Below, one piece after another: positions 3,751 through 60,945 of a stretch of 64,000 nt of DNA. Position 1 is the first letter of the stretch; each line of letters begins with the position of its first letter. The notes below the pieces were generated by a model, which saw nothing but the letters and a program-made list of their open reading frames with translations, was not told where the DNA came from and searched no databases. The DNA comes from Eledone cirrhosa (Eukaryota), in the NCBI GenBank assembly GCA_964016885.1, contig OZ024749.1:22258001-22322000 (forward strand). Reading direction: 5' to 3'. The translations under genes and the position numbers were made by a program.

Positions 3751-3917
3751 ATACTTTGGGAGGGTCATGTTGCCAATAAGAAACACACGCACCAGTTGCT
3801 TTCACTTCAATTTATTATATATTTATAAATTTATAAATCTACAAATCTACAAACTTATAAATTTCTGGTTGGTTGGTTGGTTCCACAACCAGATAGTTGT
3901 TTATATATAGTCATAGC

Positions 3918-4865
3918 TCTGGTTAGATACCATTAACAACCAAAAACAAATCCTCCATTCCCATTATGCCACCCCATGACTTCCAAACATCTGATCCACC
4001 GAAACTCGGCCATTTTGGACCATACCAAAATCAACATACTGATTGCGGATTTGGTACGGGTGATGAGAAATGTGTGCCGCATGTGCAACCCCGAAGAATT
4101 AGAGAGACACATACAACACTTCATCCACCGTATGCAGTTCTCTGGCTACAATCAGAGAGTAGAATCAGAGTGTATAGAGGAGCCAGAACCAAATGGGAAA
4201 AAATGGTAAATAATGACATAAATGGGACCTGCCCCTTGTATAGGAGCAAATTTTGGAATAGAATAGAAAGAACTAGGAACAAGGCCAATAGAATAAACTC
4301 ATGGTATGATAGCAATAAATACCAGAGTGTAATGTTCATCAATACAACCCCTAGAGGTGAATTAGCTTACAAATTTAGAAGGGCCCTAAATAAACATAAA
4401 CTCAAAATTAAGATAGTAGAAAGACCAGGTACCTCCGTAAAAACACTTATTAGCAAGACATACCCTTTTCAAAGACCCTCATGTATAGATAAGAAATGTA
4501 TAACCTGTAAAATAAGCCCCCATATTAACTGTAAAACTAGAAATGTAGTGTATAGCATAAGATGCACTGAAGGACAATGTAGAAACAAAAAGATAGTGTA
4601 CATAGGTGAGACAGCTCGTAGTATAGGGGAACGGATAAATGAACACTGGCGAGACCTTCAAGATGATAAAGAATCATCTGTACTCTACCAACATGCTAAG
4701 ATAGAACACAAGGGTAAATTAGAGAACATAGAAATAAAAATAGAATCCACACACAGAAAAGATGCAATGTTTAGGCAAATTACAGAGGCAGTAAGCATAA
4801 AAGAATTACAACCAAAATTAAATAGAAAATATGAGTGGAACAGCATCATCACAACTTACAATTAA
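3918..4865 (+). pseudogene. PLE RT C-terminus plus GIY-YIG endonuclease (frameshifted)
   Basis: MQFSGY, PLYR, CxxC linker, NVVYSIRC..YIGETARSIGERINEH, RQITEAV..PKLN. Confidence 0.9.
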
Positions 4866-5073
4866 GGACAAAATGAAAACACACACACACATAGAACAAA
4901 CAACCAACCAACAACATGTAAATAAATAAACAAATAGATAAATGAACACAAACACACAGAGACACCCGGATGTGGCGCATGCGCAAACTGAGCACACATC
5001 ACACACACAGAAACAAAATGGCGTAGGACAGAAGAAAGGAAAGGCACAGAAACAAACAAAGAAAGGAATCCCC

Positions 5074-5118
5074 AGTCACTGAAGAGGTCACAGAGTGTGT
5101 GACGAAAGGTCAATGACT
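5074..5118 (+). ncRNA. Type-I hammerhead of PLE family A (cleavage triplet altered)
   Basis: agtca-CTGAAGA-g-GTCACA gagtg TGTGAC-GAAA-ggtcaa-tgact. Confidence 0.7.
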
Positions 5119-5338
5119 ATATATAAACAACTATCTGATTGTGGAACCAACCAACCAACCAGAAATTTATAAGTTTGTAGATTTGTAGATTTATAAATTT
5201 ATAAATATATAATAAATTGAAGTGAAAGCATCTGGTGCGTGTGTTTCTTATTGGCAACATGACCCTCCCAAAGTATAACAAAATCGGTTTCAACACACGA
5301 TTTCAGATAAAGAATCTTGCTAAACAAATTCAGAAACG

Positions 5339-7826: not shown

Positions 7827-8314
7827 AAGTTATATTTAAAATTGTTGGGTTACAACTAGTAAATATTTATAACTGATATAAAAGCACTCGACAAATATTT
7901 GGAGTATATTTACAATATTGTATATATATATATATATATATTTTAATATTGTATATATATATATATATTTATATAAGAAGCAAAGACAATTTCAGTGATA
8001 CGAAACGATTTCTTCAGGTAAACTCCGGTTTCTGGGTGAAAATCCAATTTGAAAATCCAACGAATTTGAGAGGTCCACGTAAACGTTGATATATATATGT
8101 ATGTAAAAGGTAAACAGAAATAACAACACAATCGGTACAGTATATGGAAGGAATATATTAGGTTAACGCTTGAAATACCAGGAAGAGGGTCTTAACGTTT
8201 CGGACTTTTCTAAAAAACCTAGCATTTCGAGCCACTTTTTTCCACATTAAACAGAAGTAACATTCGAACACCAACCAGATGCGAGAAAAACCACAAACCC
8301 CCCATCTCAATTCT

Positions 8315-8352
8315 ACTTTTGAAAAGCATAAGAACTGTGAAACCGGTAAAGG
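8315..8352 (+). ncRNA. Hammerhead variant with U3:A8 core (family C), degenerate copy
   Basis: ctt-TTGAAAA-gcat aagaa ctgt-GAAAC CG GTA-aagg; homologous to 34684-34721 and 50152-50189. Confidence 0.55.
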
Positions 8353-8438
8353 AGACAAATAAATATTCTTAAAAAGACTCCAGTTGCATTTTTGATTGCA
8401 TATTTTTTCCTTATATATATATAAGAGAGATGGTTTTA

Positions 8439-8508
8439 TTCGTTATACGTATTTCGAAGATGTAAGGTAGTTATATAATAACGCCCTTGGACGTTTTCTT
8501 CAGACAAA
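8439..8508 (-). ncRNA. Type-I hammerhead, partly degenerate
   Basis: tttgt-CTGAAGA-long stem II (AAGG/CCTT, GTTAT/ATAAC)-GAA ATACGTAT A-acgaa. Confidence 0.6.
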
Positions 8509-8663
8509 AATACAAACGAGATGTCATTTTCCATTGATATGTCGGATATATTATTCATCTCGCCGACCAGTGCACACACACACACATATATTTATGTTAT
8601 ATGCAATGCATATTTATGTATATGCATATATAAAGACACGTATATATGCATTTATATATATTC

Positions 8664-8772
<109 letters not shown>

Positions 8773-8837
8773 TAGAGAGATTCATATGTATGAGAGAGAT
8801 TCATTTATATATATATTCATATGTATATATATATATA

Positions 8838-9965
8838 GAGAGAATTAGTACATCTACCAACATATGTGTACAGATGTACACTCATGCTAGCAAATATATA
8901 AGTTATGTCTTAGTACCTATGCGGTTCTATGCAGGTGAATGCAGAACAATTATATGAAAGACGTAAAATAAGAAGATTTTAAAAATTAAAAATTAACTTA
9001 CTAAAATTTTCACTCCAACTAATTAGTTTCTGTAATGGGATAAATATAGTTACATAATATATATAACTATAGAGAATTCATTACGGCATCATGGAGTCTA
9101 TTCTCAGCTAAGTTCCCAGGCAATGCGCGGACACTAGGAACCCATATAAAAATAATAATTCAGTAGATGGAAAGAAGCTAGCGAGGACTAAATTCCGGAG
9201 CACTGAAAAAATTCACTGCCTCTGGTCAGTGGCAGATTCTAAAGAATCAATCACGTGACACTGAGGTTAATCAGTTAGGAGCGGGTGGTATTATGACAAG
9301 AGCCTACTACTACCATGAAATAGCAGTAAATTTTGGCCAGTTTTGCTCAACAAATAATTTGGAGATAAATATAGAGAATTAGTACATCTACCAACATATG
9401 TGTACAGATGTACACTCATGCTAGCAAATATATAAGTTATGTCTTAGTACCTATGTGGTTCTATGCAGGTGAATGCAGAACAATTATATGAAAGACGTAA
9501 AATAAGAAAATTTAAAAAATTAAAATTTAACTTACTAAAATTTTCACACCAACTAATTAGTTTCTGTAATGGGATAAATATAGTTACATAATATATATAA
9601 CTTTGGAGAATTCATTACGTCATCAGGGAGTCTATTCTCAGCTAAGGTCCCAGGCAATGCGCGGACGCTAGGAACCTATATAAAAATAATAATTCAGTAG
9701 ATGGAAAGAAGCTAGCGTGGACTAAATTCCGGAGCACTGAAAACATTTCACTGCCTCTGGTCAGTGGCAGATTCTAAAGAATCAATTACGTGTCCGCGCA
9801 TTGCCTGGGAACTTAGCTGAGAATAGACTCCCTGATGACGTAATGAATTCTCTATAGCTATATATATTATGTAACTATATTTATCCCATTACAGAAACTA
9901 ATTAGTTGGAGTGAACATTTTAGTAAGTTAATTTTTAATTTTTAAAATTTTCTTATTTTACGTCT

Positions 9966-9966
<1 letters not shown>
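8838..9966. repeat. Retrozyme-like tandem array R1 (534-bp unit, about 1.8 units on minus plus an inverted segment)
   Basis: 8838-9370 repeats from 9371; inversion at about 9790; hammerheads at 9012-9097 (-, mutated core), 9546-9631 (-) and 9827-9912 (+). Confidence 0.85.
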
Positions 9967-10029
<63 letters not shown>

Positions 10030-10064
10030 CATATGTATATATATATATAGAGAGAGAGATTCAC

Positions 10065-10118
<54 letters not shown>

Positions 10119-10650
10119 CGAGAGAGATTCATACGTATATATATATATTTAATACAATAACAGAGATATTTTAAAGCTAAACTCTGACTGGTAGCCATCT
10201 CACTCAACAAACATTAGGTTATATTTAAATATAAATCCAATTTAAGTGTTTGGGGTGCTAACAATATGTATAATGTGGAAAAACCAGTTGTATTATTTTA
10301 TGAGATATAATTAAAGTTAAAGTATATCTCTCTTTCCAAACAATTGTTTCATTATAAGTTTTCTACAAGTTGGGAGAATATTTTCAGTTTATGTAGAAGC
10401 CTAATATATATTCATGTAAGAATATATTTAGGTGGGCGCTTATAAATGATCAGTGGAAGCCCATTAAACTTAGATATAAGAAAGAAATTCTTACCGCAGT
10501 CAAAAATCGTGTCTGTTAAGTTGCTCCTTCTCGCATCGAATGACCGCCAAATTTGAAATTCCAGCAGTTTTTGACTGAGGAAGTATCATATCGACACGAA
10601 GCGGGAAGGGGAGACAACTTCGATCCACGAAAGGAGGAAAAAAATAATAA

Positions 10651-11098
10651 TATACACGCGGGTTAATTAGTTTTTTCGAAAACATTATCAATCCAACGTG
10701 TTAAGAACTCAATTGAAAATAAAAAAAATAAATATATGCGTGCATAAATTACACACGCATATAGATATTTTCTTAGGCAAAAATCAGAAGTTGTACCCGA
10801 ATAAGAACCGCATCTCATAACCGCCGTAAATACAGAAAGTTATGCTTTAAAGGGCAAATGGGAATGTAAATCTCCGGCCGAATTAAGAGTAAAATATAAA
10901 ACACACGCGGGTTAATTAGTTATTTCAAAACTAATATCAATTCCTCGTGTAAAGAACTCAATTAATTAAAGAAAATAAATGTATGCATGTAATTATATAC
11001 ATAGGCATATATATATATTTTCTTAGGCTAAAAAAACAGAGAAGTTAAAACCCCCAAAAAACACAACATTTCACAACAGTAATAAATACGGAAAGTCA
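10651..11098. repeat. Diverged tandem duplication, ~250-bp unit
   Basis: acacgcgggttaattagtt..aagaactcaatt..tttcttaggc occurs at about 10654 and about 10903. Confidence 0.7.
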
Positions 11099-11101
11099 AA
11101 T

Positions 11102-11150
<49 letters not shown>

Positions 11151-11407
11151 TAAAATAACAGATTAAAGTGTAAGCAAAGAATCGGTGATTATCGAGCCCT
11201 CTTTGGATTTTAGTCTTCAAATTTATTATTATTACTATATATATATATAGCTAGATCCGAACTAAATCAGTCGTATTAGGACAGTAGGGACCTAGCTGAA
11301 CTTATCAAGGAGCACATTCCATATATGGGCATGCAATCAAAACACAGTTATGGTCCAGGTGGTTCCTTACCACACTTTCTTTGTTATATATATATATATA
11401 TATGTAC

Positions 11408-12292
11408 AATATATTTAGAAACACACAGATACATGCGGACACACACATATACATGAATGCATCCACACCCAACCGTGAATTAATGGTGCCAACCTCACCG
11501 ATGTTGCTCAATGAATGACTGGGACAGACCAATTGGGTTGAATTAGACTGAACCAGACGCGTTCTTGAAGCTAGTAAAATGAGGTATCCTCTTGATAAGT
11601 TGGCAGACCTTGCAAGGACTCTATATCTTTATGATGTATTGTTTTTGTTTATGCCACGAAACTACGTACTCGAGGAATCTAGGAACAGTTTAGGTATGAT
11701 ACATTTTATTACTAATTATATCTAAATTTTTAACTCTGATTTCAGTCTAATTCAACCGAATTGGTCTGTCCCAGTCATTCATTGAGCAACATCGGTGAGG
11801 TTGGCACCATTAATTCACGGTTGGGTGTGGATGCATTCATGTATATGTGTGTGTCCGCATGTATCTGTGTGTTTCTAAATATATTGTTCATAACTCCCTC
11901 TGGTCGAGTAATCTTTTGAAGTGTGGTGGCTGCTGGAAAGCTGCCATTACTCATACTTCTCGCCTCCTTCGCCACCTCTTCTACGGCTTCGATATAAATT
12001 CCCCCTCCGCCTCCGTGGTATTTTCTTCGGGGTTATAAGAGGCTTAGCTCTGTTTTTCGACCGTTATATCGCGTGACTATCTCCCCCTCCGCCTTTTGGG
12101 ATTCTTTCTCACGTCGTGTAGACGCCTTCTTGAAGCTAGTAAAATGAGGTATCCTCTTGATAATTTGGCAGACCTCGCAAGGACTCTATATCTTTATGAT
12201 GTATTGTTTTTGTTTATGCCACGAAACTACGTAGTCGAGGAATCTAGGAACAGTTTAGGTATGATACATTTTATTACTAATTATATCTAAAT
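11408..12292. repeat. Rearranged block with inverted and direct duplications
   Basis: 11408-11552 is inverted to 11743-11886; 11562-11726 is directly repeated at 12127-12291. Confidence 0.75.
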
Positions 12293-12325
12293 GTTTCTTC
12301 TCTCTTCATAATGTATATATATATG

Positions 12326-12358
<33 letters not shown>

Positions 12359-12390
12359 GTATATATATGTATATATATATATGTATGTAC

Positions 12391-12465
<75 letters not shown>

Positions 12466-12569
12466 TATTGAAATTTCCGTTGAAAACAGAAAAGGTCATA
12501 GAAGTGAAGAGTGCTCTATGTAAGTATCAGAGCAAAATTTAATGTATAAAAATCAATACAATATAATTA

Positions 12570-12639
12570 CCTCATTACCAGAGGTTTCCCGAATGAGGCG
12601 AATACGAAAGAAACGTCTTCATTCGTTCGTCAGACGAGG
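12570..12639 (-). ncRNA. Type-I hammerhead
   Basis: cctcgt-CTGACGA-a CGAATGA..TCATTCG g-GAA ACC tct GGT A-atgagg. Confidence 0.8.
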
Positions 12640-13310
12640 CAATATAAAACATGGGTAAATACTTGGAAAGTCTCATCAAGAAAAGCAAAAAAACAAAAAA
12701 GATATAGACAAATGAATTAGAATATGAAATATATAATAATCTTTCAAGAAATATAATTAGGTATGTATATGCGCTCACAGATGTGCATATATGTGTATGC
12801 ACATATGTATACGTATAGTGAAAAAGTGTGCGTAAATATATAATTTAGGGCAAATGTATCTGTATGTCTGTAATCTACAGACAGAATAGATACACCATAA
12901 GAATATGAAGGCACGCGCATAAGCACACCTACACACACGTACACTTAGATGCGGAAGTAAAACAGGTAAGGGGGTGTAATAATTAAAGGAAAGTATCAAT
13001 CTCGATATATGTATAAAAATGGAACAATAATTTAGAAAGAAAAAATTAAAGAAAAGAAGACAAAAAAGGTACAAACATACACACACACGTACATCTCACA
13101 AAAGAAACGCAAAGATATACATGCTTATATACACACGCAGACTTACACATCCGTACGTTCGATACGTACACACACACACACATACTTACACTCACGCATA
13201 TTGACCTGTTTGCATGCACACGCATAAAAATGAGTAAGTAGAAAAAGGGGGGAGAAGAAAAAAGGAACAAAACATAAAACCTAGATGTAAAAACACGGAT
13301 ATAAAGACAT

Positions 13311-13372
<62 letters not shown>

Positions 13373-13408
13373 CATATAAGAACAAAAGATTGTCAAAAGA
13401 GCTCCATG

Positions 13409-13479
13409 CATTCTACTATGCGCATTTCAAAAACAAACATCATCATGCAACAATATCTGTGCTTTCATCAGATAAAACA
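13409..13479 (-). ncRNA. Type-I hammerhead in a 130-bp insert between two (TA)n tracts
   Basis: tgttttat-CTGATGA-long GU-rich stem II-GAA ATGCGCAT A-gtagaatg. Confidence 0.7.
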
Positions 13480-13499
13480 TGAAGACACGATATGAAGGT

Positions 13500-13586
<87 letters not shown>

Positions 13587-14656
13587 GTGTGTGTGTGTGC
13601 GCGTGTGTGTGCGTGCGTGTGTGTGTGTGTGTGTGTGTATGTTCGTATATGTATTTGTAGCGAAAAAGTCAATACGGAAAATAGAATAAAATAGAAAAAA
13701 AAACCTCTCCTGACGATATGGCTAGCAGCCATTGCTCGTAGTTCTGTAGGTTTCGTTAGCTCATGAAACCACAGGGTGCAGTTATAATATAATGTGTACA
13801 AACTAAACTAATATATAAATAAATAAATGAATGAACATGCCACTGGTGTTAGTGTTGTTGTTGGTGGCATTAAACACAGGCCATTTATTTACTCAATAAT
13901 CTGGCAACACCTCAAATATGTTACCGTCTATTTTCTAGTCTCCTATCATCGCAGAAACAATCAATATTTCTAGTGAAATAATTCTTCTGTTTTCTTGTTG
14001 ACGAGATCTGCTTCTCTCCATCCAACACACGTGACTGGTCTGATTGTGTTATCAACGGCTGAAAGACTATTCTCAATTCAACCGTACCACCATCTTGATT
14101 TCGTCTTGATGTCTTCTGTTTATTATTATTACTATTATTATTATTTTTTGTAGTATTTTAATTTAGTTTAACAATTCCAAATTATTTTTTGATTTTTTTT
14201 CCATTCATTTCATTTCTTTCGTTTTTCTTTTTTCTTTTTTTGGCATTTTCATTTGAAAATGTTTTGTTCCGAAACTCAGCTTCTGGCAATAAAGCATTCA
14301 CCATCCAACCAACCAAGCACCAGCATGTACGAAACATCACTCCACTATAAAAATCACCACAAAAACAACCAAAGCCACTATAAAAAAAACCCATCACAAC
14401 CCTCTTCATCAACAATTACCAATCTCGGAAATATAGAAGGACTTAATTCTGGGATTAATATGATCGGTTTAACCCATTGAAGGCAGTCCCACATCATGGC
14501 CGCTGATCATTAACTGGAAAGTAGTTAAATAATAAACGAAAGGAGGAAGACTATACATGTTTTGAATGAAGTAAAAAACAAACAAACCCATCCTTAAAAA
14601 AAAAAAAAAAATTCTTCTTCTTCTTCTTCTTCTTCTTCTTCTTCTTCTTCTTCTTC

Positions 14657-15072
14657 TTGCAGAATAGTTAGACCGTTGAACAACATGCTTTGCGGCATAT
14701 AGTTACGGCCCTCTACGCTCTTAGTTCAAATCCCACTGAGGTTCATTTTGTCTTTCAACCTTACAGGGTCAATAAAATAAAGCAGCAGTAATACACTGGA
14801 GTCGATTTAATTGAATTGCCCGTTTCCACGAAATTGCTGGCCTTGTGCCTAAATCACAAACCATTATTATTATTATTATTTTGGATTCGCAGTATCAGTA
14901 GAGAGTCGGACACTATGCCTTGCAGCACAGAGTTACGGCACTTTACGGTCTCAGTTCAAATCCCGTCGAGGTTAACTTTGCCTTTCATCTCTGTGGGGGG
15001 TCAATAAAATAAAGCACCAGTAATGTACTGGAATAATTGCTGGCCTTGTGCTAAAAGTAGAAACAATTATTT
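14657..15072 (+). mobile_element. Two adjacent tRNA-derived SINEs
   Basis: Two copies (about 14657-14870 and 14888-15072) of the 7187-7368 family with gttcaaatccc B-boxes. Confidence 0.8.
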
Positions 15073-15535
15073 TATGCCAGGAATATTGTGTTTAAAAGTG
15101 TTATTGGTTAACAACATGCCAAGCAGATATTCCCAGCAGTTTTGATGGAAAACATGACAAAAGAATAAAAGAGCAGTCTTGATGGAATGTGTTGCTGTTT
15201 CTGTAGCAGTATAAACTTTTTAGAAAAGAAGGGAGCTGACCTATCGCCGAACAAAGCTGTCTTGTTCAATGTGTGATATATTCCGGACGACGAATTTGGA
15301 TGTTGCCCCTCCAACGCCTCCACCCATATATATATATAATGACGTGTAAGTTTTTTTGGTAGTTGATTGATTCTGAGGAGTTATTCTTGCAGGAATGGAA
15401 TAGTCTTGTTAGACTATTGAAACGATCGTAAATCCATTAAATACTCTAATAATATTCCATATTTAAACTATCCTTTACACACACATCCATGATTTCATAC
15501 CAACGAAAGAGTTCTAGTCATGTAAAGGCCATTGT

Positions 15536-15570
<35 letters not shown>

Positions 15571-16356
15571 ACGAAGGGAGTGTGGTACGGAACCAGATGG
15601 ACCATAACGCACCAGAGTACTCAATATTTAGGGTAGTAGAGTGGGTAATAGGAAAATGTTTAACCCCGACGGCAGAGCTCAAGCCGTTTCGACGGTTATT
15701 TCTGAACTAAATTAGAATTTTTAGCGTGTTAATAAATAGACGAACTTTTCAATGGGTAATTCCTTATATGGGAAGATTGTAGTTGTCAAAAAGATTGGTC
15801 AAAATTTCTTGTAAACACGATTAAGTTTTTCTTGGTGGTAGGTGGGAGGTGGGGGTGGCTGAACTTGCCTGTAGAACAATGAGGGGTTGGGTGGAACCGC
15901 TGAAGCGTTGAAAGTGAATTCTATACAGCAAATTCTAAGGAGCGTGTATGAAAGCAGGCGAAAAAGAATTCTGGGGGAATTTGAGAGTGGGACGTTATAA
16001 AGTTAAAAGGTTAATAAATTGAGATTAAAAGATAATAAATAAAAAAAAAAATAATCAATAAATTTAAATAGTAACAAATAATAAAAAATAAAAAATCTCT
16101 AGAGTCTAAAGCAGCCGCTATATTTTTAGCTGGTATTGCGTTATCGGGCAATGCTATATAGAATTTACTGGGGTGGGGGTACTGAGGCTACAGAAGCCCG
16201 ATGGGCTGCCTCGGGGTAGACGAAAGATGAAAAATGAAAAGAAAGGGGAGAGGGAGTGGAAGGTAGTGAAAAGAAGAGATAAAGGGAAAACGAAAATAAG
16301 TACATCTACCCATGTATGCTGGGGTTTCTCCTATCTTGTTATATATATATATAAAT

Positions 16357-17489
16357 TTTAGTAAGTAAGTTGATTTTTAATTTTTAAAATTTTCTTATTT
16401 TACGTCTTTCATATAATTGTTCTACATCCCCCTGCATAGAACCACAAAGGTACTAAGACATAACATATATATTTGCTAGCATAGGTGAACATCTGTACAC
16501 ATATGTTGGTAAATGCATTAATTATCTATATTTATCTCCAAATTATTTGTTGAGCAAAATTTGCCAGAATTTACTGCTGATTCATGGTAGTAGTAGGCTC
16601 TTGTCATAATACCACCCCGCTCCTAACTGATTAACTTCAGTGTCACGTGATTGATTCTTTAGAATCTGCCACTGACCAGAGGCAGTGAATTTTTTCAGTG
16701 CTCCGGAATTTAGTCCTCGCTAGCTTTATTCCCTCCACTGAATTATTATTATTTTTATATGGGTTCCTAGTGTCCGCGCATCGCCTGGGAACTTAGCTGA
16801 GAATAGACTCCCTGATGACGTAAGGAATTCTCTATAGTTATATTATGTAACTATATTTATCCCCTTACAGAAACTAATTAGTTGGAGTGAAATTTTTAGT
16901 AAGTAAGTTGATTTTTATTTTTTAAAATTTTCTTACTTTACGTCTTTCATATAATTGTTCTGCATCCCCCTGCATAGAACCACAAAGGTACTAAGACATA
17001 ACATATATATTTGCTAGCATAGGTGAACATCTGTACACATATGTTGGTAAATGTACTAATTCTCTATATTTATCTCCAAATTATTTGTTGAGCAAAACTT
17101 GCCAAAATTTACTGCTGATTCATGGTAGTAGTAGGCTCTTGTCATAATACCACCCCGCTCCTAACTGATTAACCTCAGTGCCACGTGATTGATTCTTTAG
17201 AATCTGCCACTGACCAGAGGCAGTGAATTTTTTCAGTGCTCCGGAATTTAGTCCTCGCTAGCTTTATTCCATCCACTGAATTATTATTATTATTTTTATA
17301 TGGGTTCCTAGTGTCCACGCATCGCCTGGGAACTTAGCTGAGAATAGACTCCCTGATGACGTAAGAAATTCTCTATAGTTATATTATGTAACTATATTTA
17401 TCCCCTTACAGAAACTAATTAGTTGGAGTGAAAATTTTAGTAAGTAAGTTGATTTTTAATTTTTAAAATTTTCTTATTTTACGTCTTTC
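16357..17489 (+). repeat. Retrozyme-like tandem array R1 (541-bp unit, about 2.1 units)
   Basis: Head-to-tail repeat; hammerheads actcc-CTGATGA..GAA ACTAATTAGT T-ggagt at 16807-16888 and 17348-17429. Confidence 0.9.
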
Positions 17490-17720
17490 AGGTTCACCCG
17501 GGAGAGCACTCGATGTTTAGGTTCACTTCTGTGATGAGGTGTAGAGCTATACAAAGTGTAATATATAGAAAGGATAAAAAGGACGATTGATTATTCCTTC
17601 ATTGCATTTATTGATAGGTGACGCGCGTTTCGCGACTGGTCAGCTCAAGATTCAATCTATATCGATCCTACCCGACTCAATAATCCGCAGCTCGACGGAC
17701 CCTCATAAAATGTTATAAGA
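17490..17720 (-). mobile_element. PLE pLTR remnant with mutated long-stem-II hammerhead (17617-17701)
   Basis: Homologous to 63140-63463; GAAACGCGCGTC half intact, left core reads CCGTCGA. Confidence 0.6.
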
Positions 17721-18500
17721 AAATGAAATACATGCTATGTGGTAAAGTCAGAGATTCAAGAGTTTGACAAAATGAGTTGTTTTGATTGATGGGAAGGATC
17801 AAGGCGAAGTACTGGCCTGTAGTGTATATGGGGTGGGTGTGATGGTGAGATGTTGGTGACGGTCGGTGGATGAGATGGCTGTGGTGTGGTGGTGGTTGGT
17901 TGGCCTTGGCGTGTAGAGTATGTGGGGGTGGATGTGATGATATGGTGGGTATGGTTGGTTAGTAGGATGGGCTGTGGTATGAGGTTAGTGGATTGTCACT
18001 AGACGGGTTGGCATGTGTGTGGGGTATGGTATTGGTGCCGTTGTCTATGGTAGCGGCGTTTGTGGTGGTGTGGTGGATGTATTGGTGGCGTCAAGGTCCT
18101 TAACTAGATACATAGCTAGACGCTCTTCGTCTGACAGATACTTTGCATATACTTATACACACACACATATATGTATATATGTGCACACATATTGTTGTAT
18201 AAACACACCCACGACAAAACACACACGCACATCCTTGCCCACACATATCGACACACGCTCACACACAGCCATATGTATATGTACACACATGTATGTGCAT
18301 GCGCGCATGCGGACACGAATATGGAGAGTGGGGAGTATCGGTGGGGGTGGCGAACGACAGAGATGGGCGGAAGGTGAGAGGCGATGTAGAAGGTGTTTTA
18401 CATATATACATACACACACATATGGGTATGGGCACATGGACTCACACTCACGTATACAAAATATACACATACACACTCACACACACGTATACTCACATAC

Positions 18501-23489: not shown

Positions 23490-24180
23490 AAGAAATTTCT
23501 TCATATACATGGAACCCCCCCCCCCCCCCCCCGCCACCACCACCACTATGATGGTGGCAGGAGGGATGAAGAAAAAACACACACTGGATAGTTCTAAATT
23601 GTTAGCAGCTGCAAGATATAAGCTGACCACAACACCAACAACACTACCAAAATAATGGTAGAGGTCAACTGTACTGAACAATAGCAAGCAAAAACACTAC
23701 AGGGAGCCTCACCTCAGAAAGAATTCTATAGACTTCTGACTGAGGAATGCTCTCAGAACTGACCAATGGGTAGTTTGACAATTTTTTTGCTATTTTGTTC
23801 CTTTAACACCTTGTCCCTTCTACCAGTTTATCAATTGGTTATGCTAACTCCAACAATAACAACACTTAGAATGAGGAATGTTCTAATAACTGACCAATGA
23901 GACGAGAAGAGTACCTTTGACACTGAAATTCGTTTGTTTGAATTCATATGACTCCAGTTCCTCAGTGAAATAACAACCCAACAAGGAAGTGGGCATATCA
24001 GAGTATTGACAATATTATAATATTATACACCCCAACAACATATGTACTTGTCTATACCATACTAATTCAAACTGCCTGAAGAGGTCACAGCCAAAGATGG
24101 CTGTCACTGAAATATATATAGCAGTAATAAACGAGGCTAAATTTTAATCATTTGACTTTTATTTAACTTTATTTTATATT
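23490..24180 (+). mobile_element. 3'UTR/pLTR fragment of PLE family Z with hammerhead at 24071-24125
   Basis: Homologous to 49110-49747; actgc-CTGAAGA-GGTCACAGCCA aaga TGGCTGTCACT-GAA ATATATAT A-gcagt. Confidence 0.85.
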
Positions 24181-24591: not shown

Positions 24592-27986
<3,395 letters not shown>

Positions 27987-28007
27987 GACGATGCCAGCCG
28001 AACAACA

Positions 28008-28451
28008 GACAGTAGGGAGGGGTGTGATATGAGGGAGAGTTAGCTGTTATTTCTAGCAGGTTTAGTGACCTCATAGAGGATATGTGTTTTCTAAATTTAA
28101 GACAGTAAGGAATGGTGTGATATGGGGAAGAGTTAGCTGCTGTTTCTAGCAGGTTTAGTGACCTCATAGAAGATATGTTTTCTAAATTTAAAACAGTAGG
28201 GAGGGATGTGATATGGGGGAGGGTTAGCTGCTGTTTCTAGCAGGTTTTGTAACCTCATAGAGGATATGTGTTTTCTAAATTTAAGACAGTAGGGAGTGGT
28301 GTGATATGGGGGAGAGTTAGCTGCTGTTTCTAGCAGGTTTAGTGACGTCATAGAAGATATGTTTTCTAAATTTAAGACAGTAGGGAGGGATGTGGTATGG
28401 GGGAGAGTTAGCTGCTGTTTCTAGCAGGTTTAGTGACCTCATAGAGGATAT
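28008..28451. repeat. Minisatellite, ~92-bp unit x5
   Basis: gacagtagggag..gttagctgctgtttctagcaggtttagtgacctcatagagg repeated five times. Confidence 0.9.
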
Positions 28452-29306
28452 TATTGTTCATCATTATCTATAAAAGGCAGATTGTTGTTGTTGTTGTGTG
28501 TGTGCACATGTTCCATGTTTATACATTTGCATAATTTCAAACCGATTCGACTCAAAGTCTGTCAGAATCCACGTACGTTGAGAGGTTTTAAAAAAGATTT
28601 ATCGCTTGTTGTTGAATAAATGTATCTGTTGCTTTTGAATAATTGTCGTTTCCTATGAAATGTAATAATTGTTTTTACTTTTTTGGCACAAGGCCATCAA
28701 ATACCCAGTACATTACTGGTACTTTATGTAATAATAAATGTTCCCTCTCTCTCTCCCTCTCACTCTCTTCTCTCTCTCTCTTCGGCAATCACGCACGTTG
28801 TTTAATTGCTTTAAATGTTGTTAATGAATAGTCGTGTATTTGTGGTTATAAATCGCGCACGTTGTTTATTTGCTTTAAATTTTTTTTGATCATTTGAAGT
28901 GAGTGTGTGTTTGTATGCGTTTGTAAATAAATCAGTAAGTTTGAAGTATAAAAGAGAAAGTAGCAAAATGGGTGGGTTGTAGATAAAGGAAAGCAGATGA
29001 TATGAGAGAGTAAAACGGACACTATCACCATCAAGCTTGGAAAGAGAAAGTAGCAGAAAGTATGAAGTTGTATAGATTTTGAATGGTAATGGATATAGTT
29101 TAGCACTTTATATGAGAGAGAAAATCGTAAAATATTGAGTTTTAGCTATATTTTGCGTAATTGTGGGTGAAATTAAAAAAATGATCTGTGCCAAGACGCA
29201 ATCGAAGCTATTTCGAATACTGAATTGTAAATTTCAATTGAAGAAATTCTATATCGTAGATTTCTACAACAAAGGAGCATGTCCATACACAGAGCTTTAT
29301 AGATTA

Positions 29307-29378
<72 letters not shown>

Positions 29379-29399
29379 TTATATATATATTTATATATA

Positions 29400-29487
<88 letters not shown>

Positions 29488-29488
<1 letters not shown>

Positions 29489-32400
29489 CGGCGATGAATT
29501 AGTTTTGAGAGGGGTTTGATATGAAATCGTGTGTCTAAACAAATATTGTTATACTTGGGGAGGGTCATATTTGTGTAATATTGCCAGAATTAATAACAGA
29601 ACACACTAACTGTTTGGTTGGTTTTCGCTTTTCGCTTCTGTGTCTTTTATATCGGTAATCTAATTTATTCGGTCCTCAATGTTGCCATTGACTGACCAGC
29701 GGTCAAAAATAATACAGATACAATATAGACACAAACACATATATATAGTTTATCAAAGTTCTTTCCTTGCAAAGTTCTTTCCTGCAACATCGTCAGTGGT
29801 GCTATTGTTTCCTCCCGTTACATTGTATTTTCTACACCATCTTTATTTAGTCTGTTTATATATTTATTTATTAGTTTATTTTATTTTGTCTTCTTTGCGC
29901 ATGCGTTTGCGTGTGTGTATAGGTGTTTTGTTTGATGTGTGTTCGTGATTGGGTGACTGTGTATTGGTTAATGTATTCTATCTTTACTAGTGTGTGTTTA
30001 TATGTGTTTGTTGTTATTGTGCTTGTGTATGTATTTATTTATTTATTTATCTATTTATTTATTTATACTTCTCTTAGGTCAGTGTTGTTTGTTTGGGTGT
30101 TGTTGTTATTCCATTCATTCTTTCTGTTTAGCCTTGGCCTTCTAATTTCTATTTCACTGGCCTCTCTGATTTGCCTATCTGCTGGGTCATTTCTATGTTT
30201 AGATATTATTCTAATTTCTATGTTGTCTATGTTACCGTCGTGTTGTTGTCTGGCATGTTCGTAGAGTACTGACCCGTTTTTTCGTCCTTTTAGTTCCCCC
30301 CAGTGTTGGTCTATCCTTTCACCTATGCTACGAGCTGTCTCGCCTATGTATTTTGTTGTCATGTTTCTGCAAGTACCCTCTGTGCATCTTATGCTATAGA
30401 ATACGTTTCTAGTTTTACAGTTTATCCGGGGGTTCACCTTACATATGATACATTTCCTATTAGTACAATGGGTTTTCTTAAAAGGGTAGGTTTTGCTGAT
30501 CAGGGTTTTTATGGTGGTTCCTGGCTTTTCTACCACCTTAATCTTTAAGTGGGTCTTTCTCAGGTCTTTCTACACTGGTTAGCTAATTTCCCTCCAGGGG
30601 TAGCGTCCACAAACATGACACTCTGGTATCTCTGGTTGTCGTACCATGAGGTGGCTTTCCCTATCTTATGTCTAGCCCTATCTAAGCTATTCCATGATTT
30701 GCTCCTGTATAATGGGCAAATTCCTTTCATGTCCAGTTCTATGAGGGTCTTATACTTCTCCATGGCTCCTCCGTATACTCTGACTCTATCTCTTTGGTTG
30801 TAGCCAGAGAACTGCATGCGGTTGATGAAGTGTTGCATGTGTCTTTCCATTTCTGTTGGGTTGCACATACGTGACACATTCTTCATCCCTCGTACCAAAT
30901 CTGCGATCAGAATATTAAACTTAGCACTACTGGACATTGCTGAGTTTTGAGTATCAGGTATTTGGAGGCCATGGGTTTAGCATAGTGTGAGTGAAGAATT
31001 TGGGCTCTCTCGTCTATAGTGTTAATCCAGAGTTCCGTGTCTAATACAGGTAGTCTATTGTTAGGGTGTTTGGAAGGGTAGTCGATAGTTACAGTTATAC
31101 TCTGGTGTATGGAATTAGCTATCTGCTGGATGCTTTCCATTGTGCTACGTTCTAAATCAAACTTGTTAGTGCTCTCTAGTGGGGATGTTCTTATAACTAT
31201 ATTGATATCGTCTACGTAACGAGAGTACATGATGAGGTCTATGGAGCTTTCATTAAGGAGATCTTTAAGTCTCCTTTCCCACCATACCATGAAAAGGTTG
31301 GCAACATCACCTGCTATGTTGATACCAATGGCTGCTCCCTCATTTTGGGTGTAGATCTTCTTGTTGAACTTGAATATGTGGCCCTTTAGGGTAGTTTTGA
31401 TACTAGCCCCTATTGCATGTGGGACCATTTTTCTTACCTGATCATTGTTTTGGGGGGTCCGTATAGCTTTGGTCAACCCAATCCACCTTCCCATGGGAGT
31501 CTTTTTAGCCATTGAGGTTATGGTGGGGGGTCTACCTCTTATGGGTCTACTGGAGCAGAAACGTCTAAGGTCATGGCTGTCTAGGTAGTCAGTGTCGTAG
31601 GTAAGTCTAAGTAGGAGACCCAGTTCGTCTGTGTCGACGTCGCAGAACTCCACCTCACTCTCAATGATCATCTCCACACATTTTTCCACAGCAAAATCAA
31701 TGTTAATGGATGGCTACAATGATACCACATCCATGCTGCCTATTATGCAGTTGGATAGGTTCGTGTTTTTGTTGCACTCACTGATTCTGCTGAGGAGGTC
31801 CTCTGTACTGTCACATACATCTGGGGACATCTTGATTATGGGGCGTATAACCATTGAGAGGAAGTAGGAGATCCTGTAGTTGCTAGCTATATTTGCTCCG
31901 CATACGCGTCTTGTTGGTGGTCCTTTGTCGGGTCGTCGACTATCTTGTGGTCTTTGCGGAGCCTATACAAGTGTGGTATGCCATTGTTAGACGCCTGGAA
32001 GTGGTTGGCAGTGCGTCTGCTTGGCTTTAGGATGACGGTCCACATCATCATGTGAGGGTTGAGGATTTTCTCTCTCCCATCATGTGTTTGCTGTGCAATT
32101 TCGCTCGTGTTGCTGATGTGGGGTTGCATAGCCTTGATGTAGTTCGGCATGCTATCTATTGACATCCTACCAGACTTATCCGTGGGTAGACATACTACGT
32201 CACCATCCCTTGTGCGCTGCTTGAGGCTAATCAAGCCTTCTACAGGTTTCCTCTCAAGTTGTTGGGCCTCTGGTCTGCTCTGTCTCTTAGTATACCGGTC
32301 TACTATTTGTCTAATCTTATTTCTAGCTATGGTGAACTGTGCCTCTGTCTCGTCATCTATTTGTTGTGGTATGCAAACTCTTTTATTAAAGGGTAACCTC

Positions 32401-33444: not shown

Positions 33445-33446
<2 letters not shown>

Positions 33447-34490
33447 AAAAACATGGGGAGAAGAATACTGCATGGTTGCACATGGATTACATATTATAAA
33501 ATTAGTCCCTCATCAGTGATTTGCCAACGATCATTGGTATTTCATCGAATTAAAAATCATATACCTCAGGTTGGCGCGAGCAATAACTAAAATAAGCTAT
33601 TGGGACAAGTGAGTCGCGTAAAGCGAGTGAGACAAGTAAACAACATAGAAGGAAAAGCTAACCGAAGATGGGAAGAAAAACAAGCAACATGGTTATCCGA
33701 TCAACATAAGCTGGGTGAATTTCATGAGCGCTCAGAAAACTGACCTTTCGCTGTGAATGGGATGTGAGAAAGAAAGAATCCCACTCCTAGCGAACGGGAA
33801 GAAGTGAGAAGGGAGAAACAAAGAGTGAGTGAGTGGAAGTGCGAGGAAGAGGTCAGTCGAGAGAAAGTGTTAACTGACAGAGGGGACGAAAGAAGGTAAG
33901 AGAAACAGAGAGAACGGGGGAGTAGTAAGAGAGAAAGAGAGAAACAGATAATCGCAGTTTAGGTAATATATATGAAAAACATGGGGAGAAGAATACTGCA
34001 TGGTTGCACATGGATTACATATTATAAAATTAGTCCCTCATCAGTGATTTGCCAACGATCATTGGTATTTCATCGAATTAAAAATCATATACCTCAGGTT
34101 GGTGCGAGCAATAACTAAAATAAGCTATTGGGACAAGTGAGTCGCGTAAAGCGAGTGAGACAAGTAAACAACATAGAAGGAAAAGCTAACCGAAGATGGG
34201 AGGAAAAACAAGCAACATGGTTATCGGATCAGCATAATCTGGGTGAATTTCATGAGCGCTCAGAAAACAAACCTTTCGCTGTGAATAGGATGTGAGAAAG
34301 AAAGAATCCCTCTCCTAGCGAACGGGAGGAAGTGAGAAGGGGAGAAACAGAGAGTGAGTGAGTGGAAGTGTGAGGAAGAGGTCAGTCGAGAGAAAGTGTT
34401 AACTGACAGAGGGGACGAAAGAAGGTAAGAGAAACAGAGAGAACGGGGGAGCAGTAAGTGAGAAAGAGAGAAACAGATAATCGATATATA
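33445..34490. repeat. Tandem dimer, 528-bp unit
   Basis: tgaaaaacatggggagaagaatactg starts at 33445 and 33973; units are highly similar. Confidence 0.9.
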
Positions 34491-34793: not shown

Positions 34794-34873
<80 letters not shown>

Positions 34874-34965
34874 TATTTATATAAATATATTTATATATAT
34901 ATATTTATATATATATATATATATTTATATACATATTTATATATATATATATTTATATATATATA

Positions 34966-36012
34966 AATGGAATAGAATGAAACGAAATTTCATTTCTCAC
35001 ACTTAGTACGGCACTTACTTAAATGTATGTATGTATACGTACATACATATATGTATACAGACGTACAGTAGCATGTATATATATATACATACAGGCACAC
35101 ATACATATATGCACGTATCAGTTTACCGAACATTTATTATAATGCTCGGTTTGTTCGTTTGTAAACAAACAAACACCCTTAATTACGCCGTACAGTGTTT
35201 AGGCAACCACGTCACCTTTTTGTTCAACACTGACACAGGAACGATGTACTAGTTTCAAGCTTATTAGCTATCGTCAGCACCGTATACCTTTCTGCCAGAT
35301 GGTTGAACGTCCGAAAGAAGATACTTTCCTTATGAAAATTAACGGCTGAGCAGCCTAATTTGCATATCGAGTGAGTTCAGTCGGCCAGGCGCACCGAAAA
35401 CGATAAATGGAATAGAATGAAACGAAATTTCATTTCTCACTCTTAGTACGGCACTTACTTAAATGTAAGTATGTATGTATACGTACATACATATATGTAT
35501 ACAAACGTACAGTAGCATGTATATATATATATACATACAGGCATAACATACATATATGCACGTATCAGTTTACCGAACATTTATTATAATGCTCGGTTTG
35601 TTCGTTTGTAAACAAACAAACAGCCTGAATTACGCCGTACAGTGTTTAAGCAACCACGTCACCTTTTTGTTCAACACTGACACAGGAATGATGTACTAGT
35701 ATAATAAATGGCTGTTTGTTTGTTTACAAACGAACAAACCGAGCATTATAATAAATGTTCGGTAAACTGATACGTGCATATATTTATGTGTGCCTGTATG
35801 TATATATATACATGCTACTGTACGTCTGTATACATATATGTATGTACGTATACATACATACTTAGATTTAAGTAAGTGACGTCTAAGAGTGAGAAATGAA
35901 ATTTCGTTTCATTCTATTCCATTTATCGTTTTCGGTGCGCCTGGCCGACTGAACTCAATCGATATGCAAATTAGGCTGCTCAGCCGTTAATTTTCATAAG
36001 GAAAGTATATAC

Positions 36013-36016
<4 letters not shown>
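34966..36016. repeat. Diverged R2-subfamily array with inversion
   Basis: About 440-bp unit; hammerhead on - at 35241-35283 (acggtg-CTGACGA..GAAACTAGTA-catcgt); orientation switch at about 35700. Confidence 0.85.
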
Positions 36017-38711: not shown

Positions 38712-41700
38712 CCTTCTTCAGATGGGTTAAGGATGAGGAGTGAAACCGTACACCGGATCTCCCTGCAACAAGTCTTAACACCCCGGCGGGCAGGCGCTGC
38801 AAAATAACACCCAGGAAACAATCCTTGCATACCAGACCCAGCATCAGACAAACAGATGCGACAAAAAAAAAAAAAAAAAACCACCTGCCAGAGTTACCTC
38901 CCTTGACCTGCTGCAAAATCAAAACAAACTATTTTTGCGAGCAATGAACCTTGATGTGGATTTAACCCCCAAAACTCTTTCCGAGCAATATAAGGAACAC
39001 TTTTGATTATTTATGCCCTTGAGAAGCCCAACTGGGCGAAACGTACGTAGGTGCTGTTTTAAATAAACATGTTTTAACGGTCTATTCTCCGATTTTTTAC
39101 TTTCCCACGTGCTTACGCTCTGCTAACTCTCTAGCCCACTAAATATTAACACTTCGAATATTTAATACTGCCGGCCTAGTATCGAGCGCCTAGTATCGAG
39201 CACCTTTGGCATACGCTACTTGGCAAATAACTATATGTATCACCTATGCTCCCCTTTTTTCTCTTTCTCGATACGTAAATACTGTATTACCGTGCTCCTT
39301 TTGTAGAGCATCTCACCTTATTTGCCATTATGTTGGAGAACCAGCCGTTACCCATGTCTGTCAAGTGTATCCCCTTACCCAGCAGAAAAACCTACCTTAA
39401 ACTGCTTATAGACGCTACTAATTCGTTTATACGGAGAGTCAGATGGAAGGCCTACCACCTGAATAAGAACACCCGTAACCTTCCTGAACCCAAAGAGAGG
39501 TATGGCTTCAAAACATACCGAAACCCACCGCACAACACCTTACTGGACTCCTTTGAAGAGGACCTGCTGAAAATGATCAAAAACGTTAAGTTCAGAAAGA
39601 AACACCAATGCAGCAATCCATTCTTAACGTCCCTTGATACACTAATAACTAAGATCAAGAATGACCCGCACCTCTTCGTCACCTCCGACAAACCAAAAAG
39701 CTGTACAAGATGGACGCGAGAAAGTATAAAAAATTCATCTATAAGGAACTACACAAAGACTACAAAAAGACACCCTCTAGTACCCTAAATGACATAAATA
39801 GAGTAGGGAAGGATATAGTCACCAGCTTAGAAATAGAAAAGTACACTAACCCGTACGTCCCTCTGACGCCTAAGTTCTCTCTTAAGGATCACAAATATGA
39901 CTTTAATGAAAGCCCCTCTATTAGACTAATATGCCCCTCAACATCAGATATAGGTAAGATTAGTAAAGTGATCCTCGACAGAGTACTACTGGAGCTTAAT
40001 AGAAAGGCTAAGGTCTGCCTCTGGGGCAACACCGACCAGGTCATAAATTGGTTCACCGAGTTGCCGGATAAAGCCACCTTGAAATTCATCCAGTTTGATA
40101 TAGATAGTTACTACGCCTCTATCTCCCCCATACTCTTAAATAAGGCACTTATCTTAGCTAGATCTAACACTAGCCTCACTAAAAAAGAAATAGACATAAT
40201 TCTAGCGGCGCGTAGAACCATTATCCAGTTCGAAGGCTCCCACTGGACCAGAACCAACCGTCCTGATAACTTCGATGACACGATGGGGTCCAGTGACTCA
40301 GCGCAAGTAACTCACCTGGTCGGGATATACCTCCTACATAAGCTTAGGGAAGAGATACAGACCCTACAAGGCGGTGTATATAGGGATGACGCCCTGTTTA
40401 CCGTTAGGAACCATAGTCCCCGTAGGATAGAGAACCTTAACAAACATATACACAGGTTCTTCAAGTCATACGGCCTATTCGTAACTATGGACCTCAACCA
40501 CAGGGTTGTCAACTTCCTGGACGTGACACTGGAGTTGAGTACAGGCTTATACAAGCCATACCATAAGCCTGGAGAGTGCCTCTCTTATATTAATTATGCC
40601 TCAAACCACCCTAAGCAGACTCTCAACTCTATAGTCTATAGTATCTCACATAGAATCTCGAGGCTATCCGCCAATGAGGATATCTTCAACCAAGCGACAG
40701 ATTACTACAATAGGGCCTTGATAAGCGCCGGATTTAACCGAGGAATTTCCTACAGCCCTAACGCTAGCTCTAGAAACCATCCCCTCATAAAACAAACGTT
40801 ATAGAAAGCCATACCTATAACCGATCACGCGGCGACCTCGTTGAAGTCGGATATAATAGAATAGATAACCGCACTAAAGATCACGACCCCGGCGACGGTG
40901 AACACTGTAGATTACTCGAACTATTCCCCTATTACAAAACCAACAAAGGCAACGGCCTACTACCAACGCCTTCAAACCAACATGTTCGTGTACATAAACA
41001 TGGAAGAGGTAAGAAGAGTGCACCCGAGCATAAAGTGAAAGGGGCACCGAACGGGCGACTGCGCATTAACACACATAAGAGCGGTCACCTAGATGGAACC
41101 ACCCGTAGCAAAAGTACAAGGACACGGAATCACCACCGTAACGTCCTATGGTCCCCCCCTACTCTCGGAGTGTGGCCTCCAACATACCCCGGATGTTCTT
41201 CGAAGCCTTAGAGAAGAACTTCCCGCCCAACCATAGGTATAGAAAAATTCTTAATAGGAATAATATAAAAATATCCTTCTCTACTACTCCTAACCTAGCA
41301 GACATCATAGGAACAACGAACCACAGTAAGATGACCAAGACACAGCACCTCGACACAGACGCACCTACACCTGACAATAACTATATCGGCCTTAACAACT
41401 CCCTGGCAGCATCCAATAGTGTTGACAACGGCATCCGCAGACGCAACCAGCATAACCGTGAAATGACTGGGGAACATGCAGGACATGACGTGCGGAATAA
41501 CAATCGCAGCACCCCGCGTGCTGTGGGTTGTAATTGTGCTAACGACCGCTGCGGTAGCGTAGGTAACAACGCAGGCAGCAACAATGATAGCCTTACCGTG
41601 GGAAATAGACGGAACCGCGACAGAAATTGCAACTGCCGCGACAGAGGACGCTGCCCCCTTAGAGGATACTGCTTGACTGATAGGGTTATATATAGATGCA

Positions 41701-42610
41701 CTATTACTAGCCACAATAGCGTTAAACATTATATAGGTGCTACGTCCGGCCCGTTCAAAATTAGGTTTCGAACACATCTCCACTCTTTCACAAATAGAAA
41801 ACTAAGGCACTCCACTTCGCTCGCGGACTACATCACATCACTAAAGGACTTAAACATCAGCTTCTCCACGCACTGGGAGATTGTCGATAGGGCTGCACCG
41901 TACAAATTCAAGAGGAAATGCGATCTTTGACTCATGGAGCTCTACCACATTATAACTGCACCCCACGAACTCATCAACAGCAGAGCTGAAACAGCGATAA
42001 GTTGTACACATCGCTTAAAAATATCCTTCTTCAGATGGGTTAAGGATGATGAGTGAAACCGTACACCGGATCTCCCTGCAACAATTCTTAACACGCAGGC
42101 GGGCAGGCGCTGCAAAATAACATCCAGGAAACAATCCTTGCATACCAGACCCAAGCTCAGACAAACAGATGCCGCAAAAAAAAAAAAAAAAAATTGTCCG
42201 GGAAAGACTGCCCTAAGAGCGGCCAGAGTTGTTTCCCTTGACCTGCTGCAAAATCAAAACAAGCTATTTTTGCGAGCAATGAACCTTGATGTGGATTTAA
42301 CCCCCAAAACTCTTTCCGAGCAATATAAGGAACACTTTTGATTATTTACGCCCTTGAGAAGCCCAAATGGGCGAAACGTACGTAGGTGCTGTTTTAAATA
42401 AACATGTTTTAACGGTCTATTCTCCGATTTTTTACTTTCCCAAGTGCTTGCGCTCTGCTAACTCTCTAGCCCACTAAATATTAACACTTCGAAAATTTAA
42501 TACTGCCGGCACTAGTATCGAGCACCTTTGGCATACGCTACTTGGCAAATAACTATATGTATCACCTATGCTCCCCTTTTTTTCTCTTTCTCGATACGTA
42601 AATACTGTAT
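38712..42610 (+). mobile_element. Full-length-architecture PLE family Y (partial tandem, ~575-bp direct repeats)
   Basis: 38712-39287 is repeated at 42026-42610; hammerhead variants at 39015-39054 and 42350-42389. Confidence 0.92.
39354..42056 (+). pseudogene. PLE RT plus GIY-YIG polyprotein, disrupted
   Basis: CIPLPS..FIRRVRWKA, LKDHK, IRLICP, FDIDSYYASI, MGS, YRDD, FLDV, PYHKP, CNCR..CPL..VIY..YIG..FKIRF..H, CDL*LME..LINSR..CTH. Confidence 0.92.

Positions 42611-46851: not shown

Positions 46852-46853
<2 letters not shown>
42939..46853 (+). mobile_element. PLE family A, long copy with 5' inversion
   Basis: 42939-44035 is the inverted N-terminal region (CLPPKFA..EIEKSFTKLRW, Thr/Asn-rich); 42939-43079 duplicates 44037-44177; pLTR with hammerhead at 46665-46709. 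Confidence 0.92.
44036..46464 (+). pseudogene. PLE RT plus GIY-YIG, disrupted
   Basis: FPTDKSGR, YGLRKDHK, MDVVSLYPSI, GAAIG, YSRYVVHI (catalytic DD lost), YIGETARS. Confidence 0.92.
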
Positions 46854-46883
<30 letters not shown>

Positions 46884-47161: not shown

Positions 47162-47168
<7 letters not shown>

Positions 47169-50685: not shown

Positions 50686-52078
<1,393 letters not shown>

Positions 52079-52116
52079 GTGTATATATATATATATATAT
52101 ATTTGTGTGTACACAT

Positions 52117-52149
<33 letters not shown>

Positions 52150-52150
<1 letters not shown>

Positions 52151-60788: not shown

Positions 60789-60945
60789 TGTATGTATGTA
60801 TGTATGTATGTATGTATGTATGTATGTATGTATGTATGTATGTATGTATGTATGTATGTATGTATGTATGTATGTATGTGTGTATGTGTGTATGTGTGTA
60901 TGTATGTATGTGTGGATGTGTGTATGTATGTATGTATGTATGTAT

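Follow-up and report, generated by a model that had tools for sequence, protein, structure and literature searches.

The window analysed here is a 64-kb stretch (64,000 nucleotides) of AT-microsatellite-rich eukaryotic DNA, probably from an animal to judge by its repeats. On its forward strand, positions 16353-17490 hold 2.1 head-to-tail copies of a 541-nt unit, the repeat R1. Unit position 1 is defined as the first base 3' of the predicted ribozyme cut; by BLAST of 16884-17424 against the window, the array comprises unit positions 8-541, 1-541 and 1-66. It is referred to below as array 2, and the other R1 array of the window, together with its inverted piece, as array 1. The features are as follows.

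16340..16353, no strand: target microsatellite (TA)7, adjoining array 2 on its 5' side (sequence)
16353..16883, +: R1 unit 1, without its first 7 nt (unit 8-541; BLAST, copy alignment)
16807..16888, +: type I hammerhead 1 (descriptor, folding; activity putative)
16884..17424, +: full 541-nt R1 monomer between the predicted cuts (BLAST, folding)
16899..16908, +: two overlapping donor-like GTAAGT motifs, at +16 and +20 (sequence; splice use putative)
17348..17429, +: type I hammerhead 2, of the same design, U17 = 17424 (descriptor, alignment, contigs, folding)
17425..17490, +: 66-nt R1 tail past the last ribozyme, where the unit would continue with TATA (tail concept from excerpts of PMC11167929 and PMC8557442)
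17490..17700, -: neighbouring repeat Y, with a hammerhead-like motif at 17610-17649 (Rfam, BLAST, contigs)
8831..9792, -: first R1 array, unit 299-541, 1-541 and 1 to about 182 (BLAST to 190), ending at (TA)n (BLAST)
9790..9973, +: inverted, 5'-truncated R1 piece, unit 428-541 and 1 to about 63, with one ribozyme, ending at (TA)n (BLAST, descriptor)

The R1 copies in array 2 are 96.7-96.8% identical, and its two units differ by 14 substitutions at 531 aligned sites. Tandem Repeats Finder made no call of the R1 array at a period limit of 500, which is below the 541-nt unit. Sequencing contigs were available from three runs on one sample in one study, and the head-to-tail joint occurs in 9, 10 and 13 contigs of these runs. 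An assembly artefact is rejected, with copies 2.6% apart that carry polarised private changes and a joint that is present in contigs. The monomer has 34.8% GC and is non-coding; its longest stop-free stretch in six frames is 52 codons.

At each of the 14 differing sites in array 2, one allele matches array 1. Between the two arrays there are 18 fixed substitutions and four indels and no polymorphism in common, although three of the substitutions and one indel rest on a single array-1 copy. Each array therefore descends from one unit type, followed by decay; such descent could equally have come about by repeated copying of a circle or from the transcript of a source array that was itself homogeneous.

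The R1 hammerhead motif and its predicted folding

A type I hammerhead descriptor matches 16 times in the window, whereas 30 block-wise dinucleotide shuffles yield 0.07 matches on average. In array 2 the descriptor search places two motifs, with predicted cuts after 16883 and 17424. Hammerhead 1 has a 5-bp stem I (ACUCC/GGAGU), the core CUGAUGA at 16812-16818, GAA, a 6-bp stem II (16820-16825 with 16863-16868) enclosing an inner hairpin, and U17 at 16883. In hammerhead 2, stem II is down to 5 bp, its sixth pair lost to a private G>A at 17366. Stem II and its loop, inner hairpin included, span 51 nt. Stem III, ACTAATTAGT, is a perfect palindrome at 16873-16882 and 17414-17423.

The motif thus contains the elements of a type I hammerhead, namely CUGANGA, GAA, A15.1-U16.1, an NUH triplet and stems I-III. 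This picture is complicated at three points, of which the long stem II loop with its inner hairpin, present in all five window copies, is one. Instead of the G10.1-C11.1 pair, a C.A apposition adjoins the core and the G-C pair lies one step out; the same nucleotides can be read as two inserted bases between the core and the first stem II G-C pair, and they are found in five of five window copies. In addition, hammerheads cleave more slowly after GUU than after GUC or GUA. The R1 cleavage triplet is the off-consensus GUU, again in all five window copies; GUU is listed among the active NUH sites in excerpts of PMC3138052. For the hammerheads of Penelope-like elements (PLEs), the excerpted PMC4209133 stresses the G10.1-C11.1 pair next to the core, and gives an extra base after A9 as typical. 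A precedent for the C.A is the axolotl HHR_Amex2, an active ribozyme whose helix II has a U.U mismatch at its base and whose cleavage is better in dimeric form (PMC7229834, excerpts). Of 89 contig variant rows, the 40 listed include none that changes the core, C17360, A17410 or U17424.

The preliminary description had seen a second R1 array with two intact ribozymes around a full monomer. Array, monomer and both motifs are there, but 'intact' applies only with the GUU triplet, the C.A and the 17366 G>A in mind. The predicted cuts lie 541 nt apart, in keeping with its proposal that cleavage after 16883 and 17424 would release a 541-nt monomer.

Rfam, RF00163 (Hammerhead_1) included, gives no match in the window at the gathering score; at E<=5, the R1 motifs are absent among 34 matches in 8000-18000. 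This may reflect the 45-position Hammerhead_1 model, which makes no room for the long R1 stem II. An exact R1 ribozyme pattern has no match in metagenome and viral contigs. Off-consensus hammerheads of this kind, and a donor-like motif after the cut, may already have been catalogued.

When constrained to the hammerhead, the two R1 motifs fold at -18.5 and -15.1 kcal/mol (the threshold for the class is below -5). In a single ribozyme, folding energies favour an inactive pairing between core and palindrome by 2.5 kcal/mol. Two ribozymes together behave differently in the models: stem III is more stable as a duplex (-9.0 kcal/mol) than as a hairpin (+1.5), and a double hammerhead in the array transcript (-172.1) is better by 4.6 kcal/mol than two single ones (-167.5). 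The unconstrained minimum, at -175.4, is 3.3 kcal/mol below the double hammerhead. Stem I is extendable past a small internal loop in the fold of the array transcript. The suggestion that the palindromic stem III allows dimer cleavage is thus borne out by the folding energies; cleavage as a dimer is plausible and would probably be slow. Among Xenopus retrozyme dimers predicted to be active, one of nine cleaved in vitro (bioRxiv 10.64898/2026.07.22.740005, excerpts). The monomer as a whole has a fold z of -5.6 when linear and -4.5 when circular.

Ends, insertion and the RNA template

The three R1 3' ends, at +66, about +63 and about +182, all lie no more than 3 nt from one of the unit's TATA/ATAT runs, and 7.6% of unit positions qualify as such places. 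(TA)n abuts both array-1 3' ends and the 3' end of family X, another hammerhead repeat described below. Array 2 is preceded by (TA)7 on its 5' side, and on its 3' side it meets repeat Y tail to tail. Compared with the Y copy near 63113, the one at 17490-17700 lacks its final ~30 nt and the (TA)n, and this missing end appears to the left of 17490 in 85-97 contigs per run. The simplest reading is an insertion of array 2 into the (TA)n of Y, with the right-hand part lost at or after insertion. Position 17490 would mark the start of reverse transcription. No target-site duplication is visible at the R1 insertions, which end in (TA)n or at the deletion; in non-LTR retrozymes such a duplication, where there is one, is longer than 4 bp.

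Repeat Y (17490-17700 on the minus strand, and 63113-63469) has a minimal hammerhead-like motif of its own, which scores 18.5 bits with Rfam Hammerhead_1 (E 2.2, under gathering). Its second copy, 63113-63469, is inverted head to head and has (TA)n on either side.

PLE insertions are described, in excerpts of PMC8557442 and PMC3846280, as partial tandems with inverted 5'-truncated copies, tails and a bias towards microsatellites. R1 resembles them in all of these respects: both arrays have the tandem and the tail, array 1 has an inverted copy and 3' ends at (TA)n, and (TA)7 lies 5' of array 2. There are also differences. The R1 tail measures 63-182 nt, that of PLEs 30-40 nt in the excerpted literature. 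The anole PLE primes without target homology, whereas R1 ends at TA runs; reverse transcription of the anole PLE initiates inside uncut tandem RNA, past the ribozyme (PMC11167929, excerpts).

These ends bear on the template. The different phases in which the arrays start had been taken as expected from copying a circle. They are not diagnostic of one: the 3' ends track TA runs, the variation at the 5' ends and the inverted copy are ordinary PLE truncation (PMC8557442, excerpts), and internal starts of reverse transcription are known, so that differing phases are expected without a circle. Nor can reads across head-to-tail RNA junctions separate a circle from its precursor, because the genomic array has the same junction.

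Overall, a circle and an uncut linear multimer stand at about even odds as the R1 template. A specific linear version, rated just short of an even chance, has the arrays copied from a partly cut multimer with a ribozyme-made 5' end and uncut inner ribozymes. It agrees with 3' ends that follow TA runs, with the use of unprocessed RNA and an internal start past the ribozyme by a PLE in vitro (PMC11167929, excerpts), and with two 5' ends near a cut site: array 2 begins 7 nt after one, and a family X copy begins 2-3 nt short of one, which hints weakly at 5' ends that are in some cases set by cleavage. The other 5' ends in the window are distant from the cut (+299 in the first R1 array and +428 in its inverted piece), and the array-specific alleles common to all copies fit repeated rounds on one circle equally.

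A second tandem hammerhead family lies at 24966-27985 and 34814-36015, with a 464-480-nt unit, U.U at the base of stem II, an ACTAGT palindrome and a GUA cut. It forms head-to-head inverted arrays of up to 99% identity, with (TA)n at the ends checked. R1 is the older of the two, and less suited to deciding between a circular and a linear template. With 16 hammerhead matches per 64 kb, this genome would be well suited to that question in PLEs.

R1 as a probable retrozyme and its relation to PLEs

By its sequence, R1 falls under the definition of a non-LTR retrozyme. It has at least two consecutive units that each carry a complete type I hammerhead motif, as the class demands, with GC below 50% and a self-paired monomer. 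At 541 nt the unit exceeds the 150-450 bp of PMC7229834 and is within the 51-972 bp of bioRxiv 10.64898/2026.07.22.740005 (excerpts of both). The class is defined as lacking LTR, PBS and PPT; self-comparison of the window reveals no LTR layout around R1. With animal non-LTR retrozymes as described in the same two sources, R1 shares tandem non-coding units with one type I hammerhead each, low GC, a structured monomer and, to judge by the PLE-type ORFs of the window, an apparent co-occurrence with PLEs. Unlike them, as far as the excerpts go, it has a 541-nt unit, a GUU triplet, a 51-nt stem II with inner hairpin and a donor-like motif after the cut. The R1 monomer is also predicted to trap its core, whereas most animal retrozyme circles are predicted to leave it free.

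Non-LTR retrozymes, already described in many animals, have been proposed as non-autonomous PLE derivatives (bioRxiv 10.64898/2026.07.22.740005, excerpts), a case already published mainly on phylogeny and co-occurrence. The tandem units, single hammerhead per unit, tail, (TA)n junctions and inverted copy in array 1 make it highly probable that R1 is such a derivative, non-coding and moved by a PLE RT/GIY-YIG protein. The locus adds support at the level of insertions: PLE end structures on an ORF-free ribozyme repeat. Among PLE derivatives, Chlamys MRC1 is similar in being non-autonomous and in its multicopy head-to-tail insertions. Most Chlamys are without canonical hammerheads, unlike R1, and Chlamys non-autonomous elements resemble their autonomous partner at the 3' end, while R1 has no partner linked in the window (PMC8557442, excerpts).

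R1 itself is excluded as an autonomous PLE, as there is no RT + GIY-YIG ORF in or between its units; the absence of an ORF is one of its differences from PLEs. PLE-type ORFs do occur in the window, with Pfam matches to GIY-YIG (E 2.7e-4) and RVT_1 (E 5.8e-4) that are both under the cut-off, and with atlas neighbours at 0.97 of which 18-28% of members carry GIY-YIG or HTH_animal. These RT and GIY-YIG ORFs are broken. Broken RT + GIY-YIG fragments with a CX4CxxC linker lie at 3912-5284, 45488-46855, 29309-32357, 44164-46447 and 50829-52186, and are candidates for the R1 helper family.

An alternative is that R1 derives from an autonomous PLE as its pLTR or 3' end, and that the arrays are heavily 5'-truncated partial tandems that have lost the ORF. 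The end structures match PLE insertions, and the ribozyme is PLE-like: the pLTR hammerheads of PMC4209133 (excerpts) likewise have a short stem I, a long stem II, an extra base after A9 and a palindromic stem III, as R1 does with its stems I and II of 5 and 6 bp. Some contigs switch to other sequence at 17164, and the unit is unevenly covered, which points to parts common to other repeats. Even so, this alternative is quite unlikely: both arrays run from a ribozyme through a whole unit to the next ribozyme with no ORF, and sensitive BLAST finds no R1 match beside the PLE-type ORFs of the window and no R1-homologous pLTR in the 64 kb.

Whether the RNA itself matters to R1 can be judged from its variants. 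One stem II pair is G-C in array 2 and U-A in array 1, a compensatory change; G17365T and C17405A are both majority alleles in contigs of the three runs on one sample. A covariation count on the five R1 copies is not above shuffles (48/500). Family-level variants, collected from the 23 in-unit changes among 40 listed contig variants (of 89 rows) and the 18 between-array substitutions, cover 35 distinct sites and break four predicted pairs where 10.1 would be expected; for the 25 private changes the count is 11, with 9.3 expected. With three sites private to the reference copy dropped, family variants break 4-5 of 32 in array-2 reference folds, against about 9.5-10 expected (P 0.009-0.017); in the array-1 reference fold they break 6-7 of 32, which is not significant (P 0.06-0.12). 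The sparing of the fold by family variants is therefore a moderate signal, with sites that are not independent and a result that depends on the reference. Together with the compensatory change and a monomer z of about -5, it is evidence for selection on R1 at the RNA level, and adds to the retrozyme case a sign of its own: spreading variants spare the RNA fold and private ones do not.

These signs also weigh against a second alternative, in which R1 is a satellite or dead relic duplicated at the DNA level, with the ribozyme an inactive passenger. Such a relic would agree with the off-consensus U17 and C.A, with damaging changes in two of three array-1 ribozymes (one with two core changes, C3>A and A9>C, another with a stem I change), and with pairwise differences of 2.5-9% within arrays. 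The last value means that the R1 insertions are not recent. The relic is nonetheless very unlikely in view of the dispersed short arrays in both orientations, the microsatellite junctions, the inverted end, and the compensatory change and structure-sparing family variants. For a retrozyme, the off-consensus ribozyme bears on how much activity such elements need.

The proposed life cycle of R1 would begin with transcription of a tandem array, in which two neighbouring ribozymes would pair via the ACUAAUUAGU palindrome, with slow cleavage after GUU. The resulting monomer would fold with stem I closing both ends, its core trapped in an inactive fold, and a host ligase may join it to a circle. A PLE protein would nick (TA)n DNA, and reverse transcription would initiate inside the RNA at a TA run past the ribozyme. 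For array 2, 2.1 units would have been copied, and at the 3' junction the neighbouring Y would have lost its (TA)n and ~30 nt at or after insertion.

The donor-like motif after the cut

Together with the off-consensus ribozyme, the donor-like motif after the cut is a point of R1 that merits follow-up. Besides the double motif in the monomer, GTAAGT is found at 16361 and 17440; the 4-nt duplication behind the double GTAAGT is confined to this array. In family X, GTAAGT lies at +13 after the cut. The preliminary description had taken a GTAAGT about 15 nt downstream, as in family X, to echo PLE pLTR introns. The motif is indeed present, but R1 and X are similar just after the cut (71% over 51 nt, E 3e-4), and, since they are homologous over the donor stretch, the two donors count once and X gives no independent support.

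Across the hammerhead families of the window, a donor-like motif within 25 nt after the cut is found in four of seven, against a background of 5% (P 2e-4), or in three of six with R1 and X counted once (P 2e-3), both for a motif set chosen post hoc. A 5' UTR intron is known in the pLTR of Penelope and Chlamys-3 (excerpts of PMC4209133, PMC8557442, PMC3846280 and PMC11167929). In D. virilis Penelope the intron's 3' end lies in helix I, as described in this literature, whereas in R1 it is the donor-like motif that lies after the cut. One plausible acceptor exists, at R1 unit +94. Contigs on 16950-17820 contain six joints, none of them a GT-AG skip or a return from the donor; contigs show presence only, and PLEs keep introns, so this outcome carries no weight.

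It is conceivable, if unlikely, that active R1 keeps a working U1/spliceosome signal after a slow GUU hammerhead, and that splicing or U1 binding, in competition with cleavage, decides between circle and retrotransposition template. If so, a donor after the cut would be a shared design of the PLE-derived families of this genome, and R1 would be a naturally occurring U17, C.A hammerhead in high copy number, with selection holding down its rate. The donor block may equally be a protein-binding signal or a signal for the start of reverse transcription, as several 3' ends lie just after it.

The other hammerhead families are varied. Family X, at 38712-38145 (minus strand), has a ~484-nt monomer, a ~80-nt tail and one hammerhead, in which stem II is closed by G-C and the GUA cut falls at 38226; weak homology to R1 is found after the cut and around unit 203-283. 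Further families lie at 52981-52142 (minus strand, cut at 52536; a ~658-nt unit with a partial repeat), at 13417 and at 12576 (both minus strand), and in two of these three the cut is followed, at 5 and 15 nt, by a donor-like motif. The family at 47162-49746 and 23495-24176 has a CUGAAGA core and stem III ATATATAT, lies downstream of a PLE-type ORF and includes an inverted copy; two of its copies end at +56 at (TA)n.

A PLE-like element at 38712-42610 (plus strand) has a broken RT/endonuclease ORF (39279-41930) between direct repeats of ~590 nt, which are 90% identical and extend over the start of the ORF; the repeat carries a degenerate, minimal-hammerhead-like motif near its 5' end. Tandem repeats of ~528, 432 and 91 nt at 33445-34483, 60931-61794 and 28007-28452 show no hammerhead descriptor match. 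A run of N is present near 56600-56800, and 53156-56386 on the minus strand is a LINE-type element, broken, in which Exo_endo_phos_2 (E 2.9e-12) marks an AP endonuclease domain.
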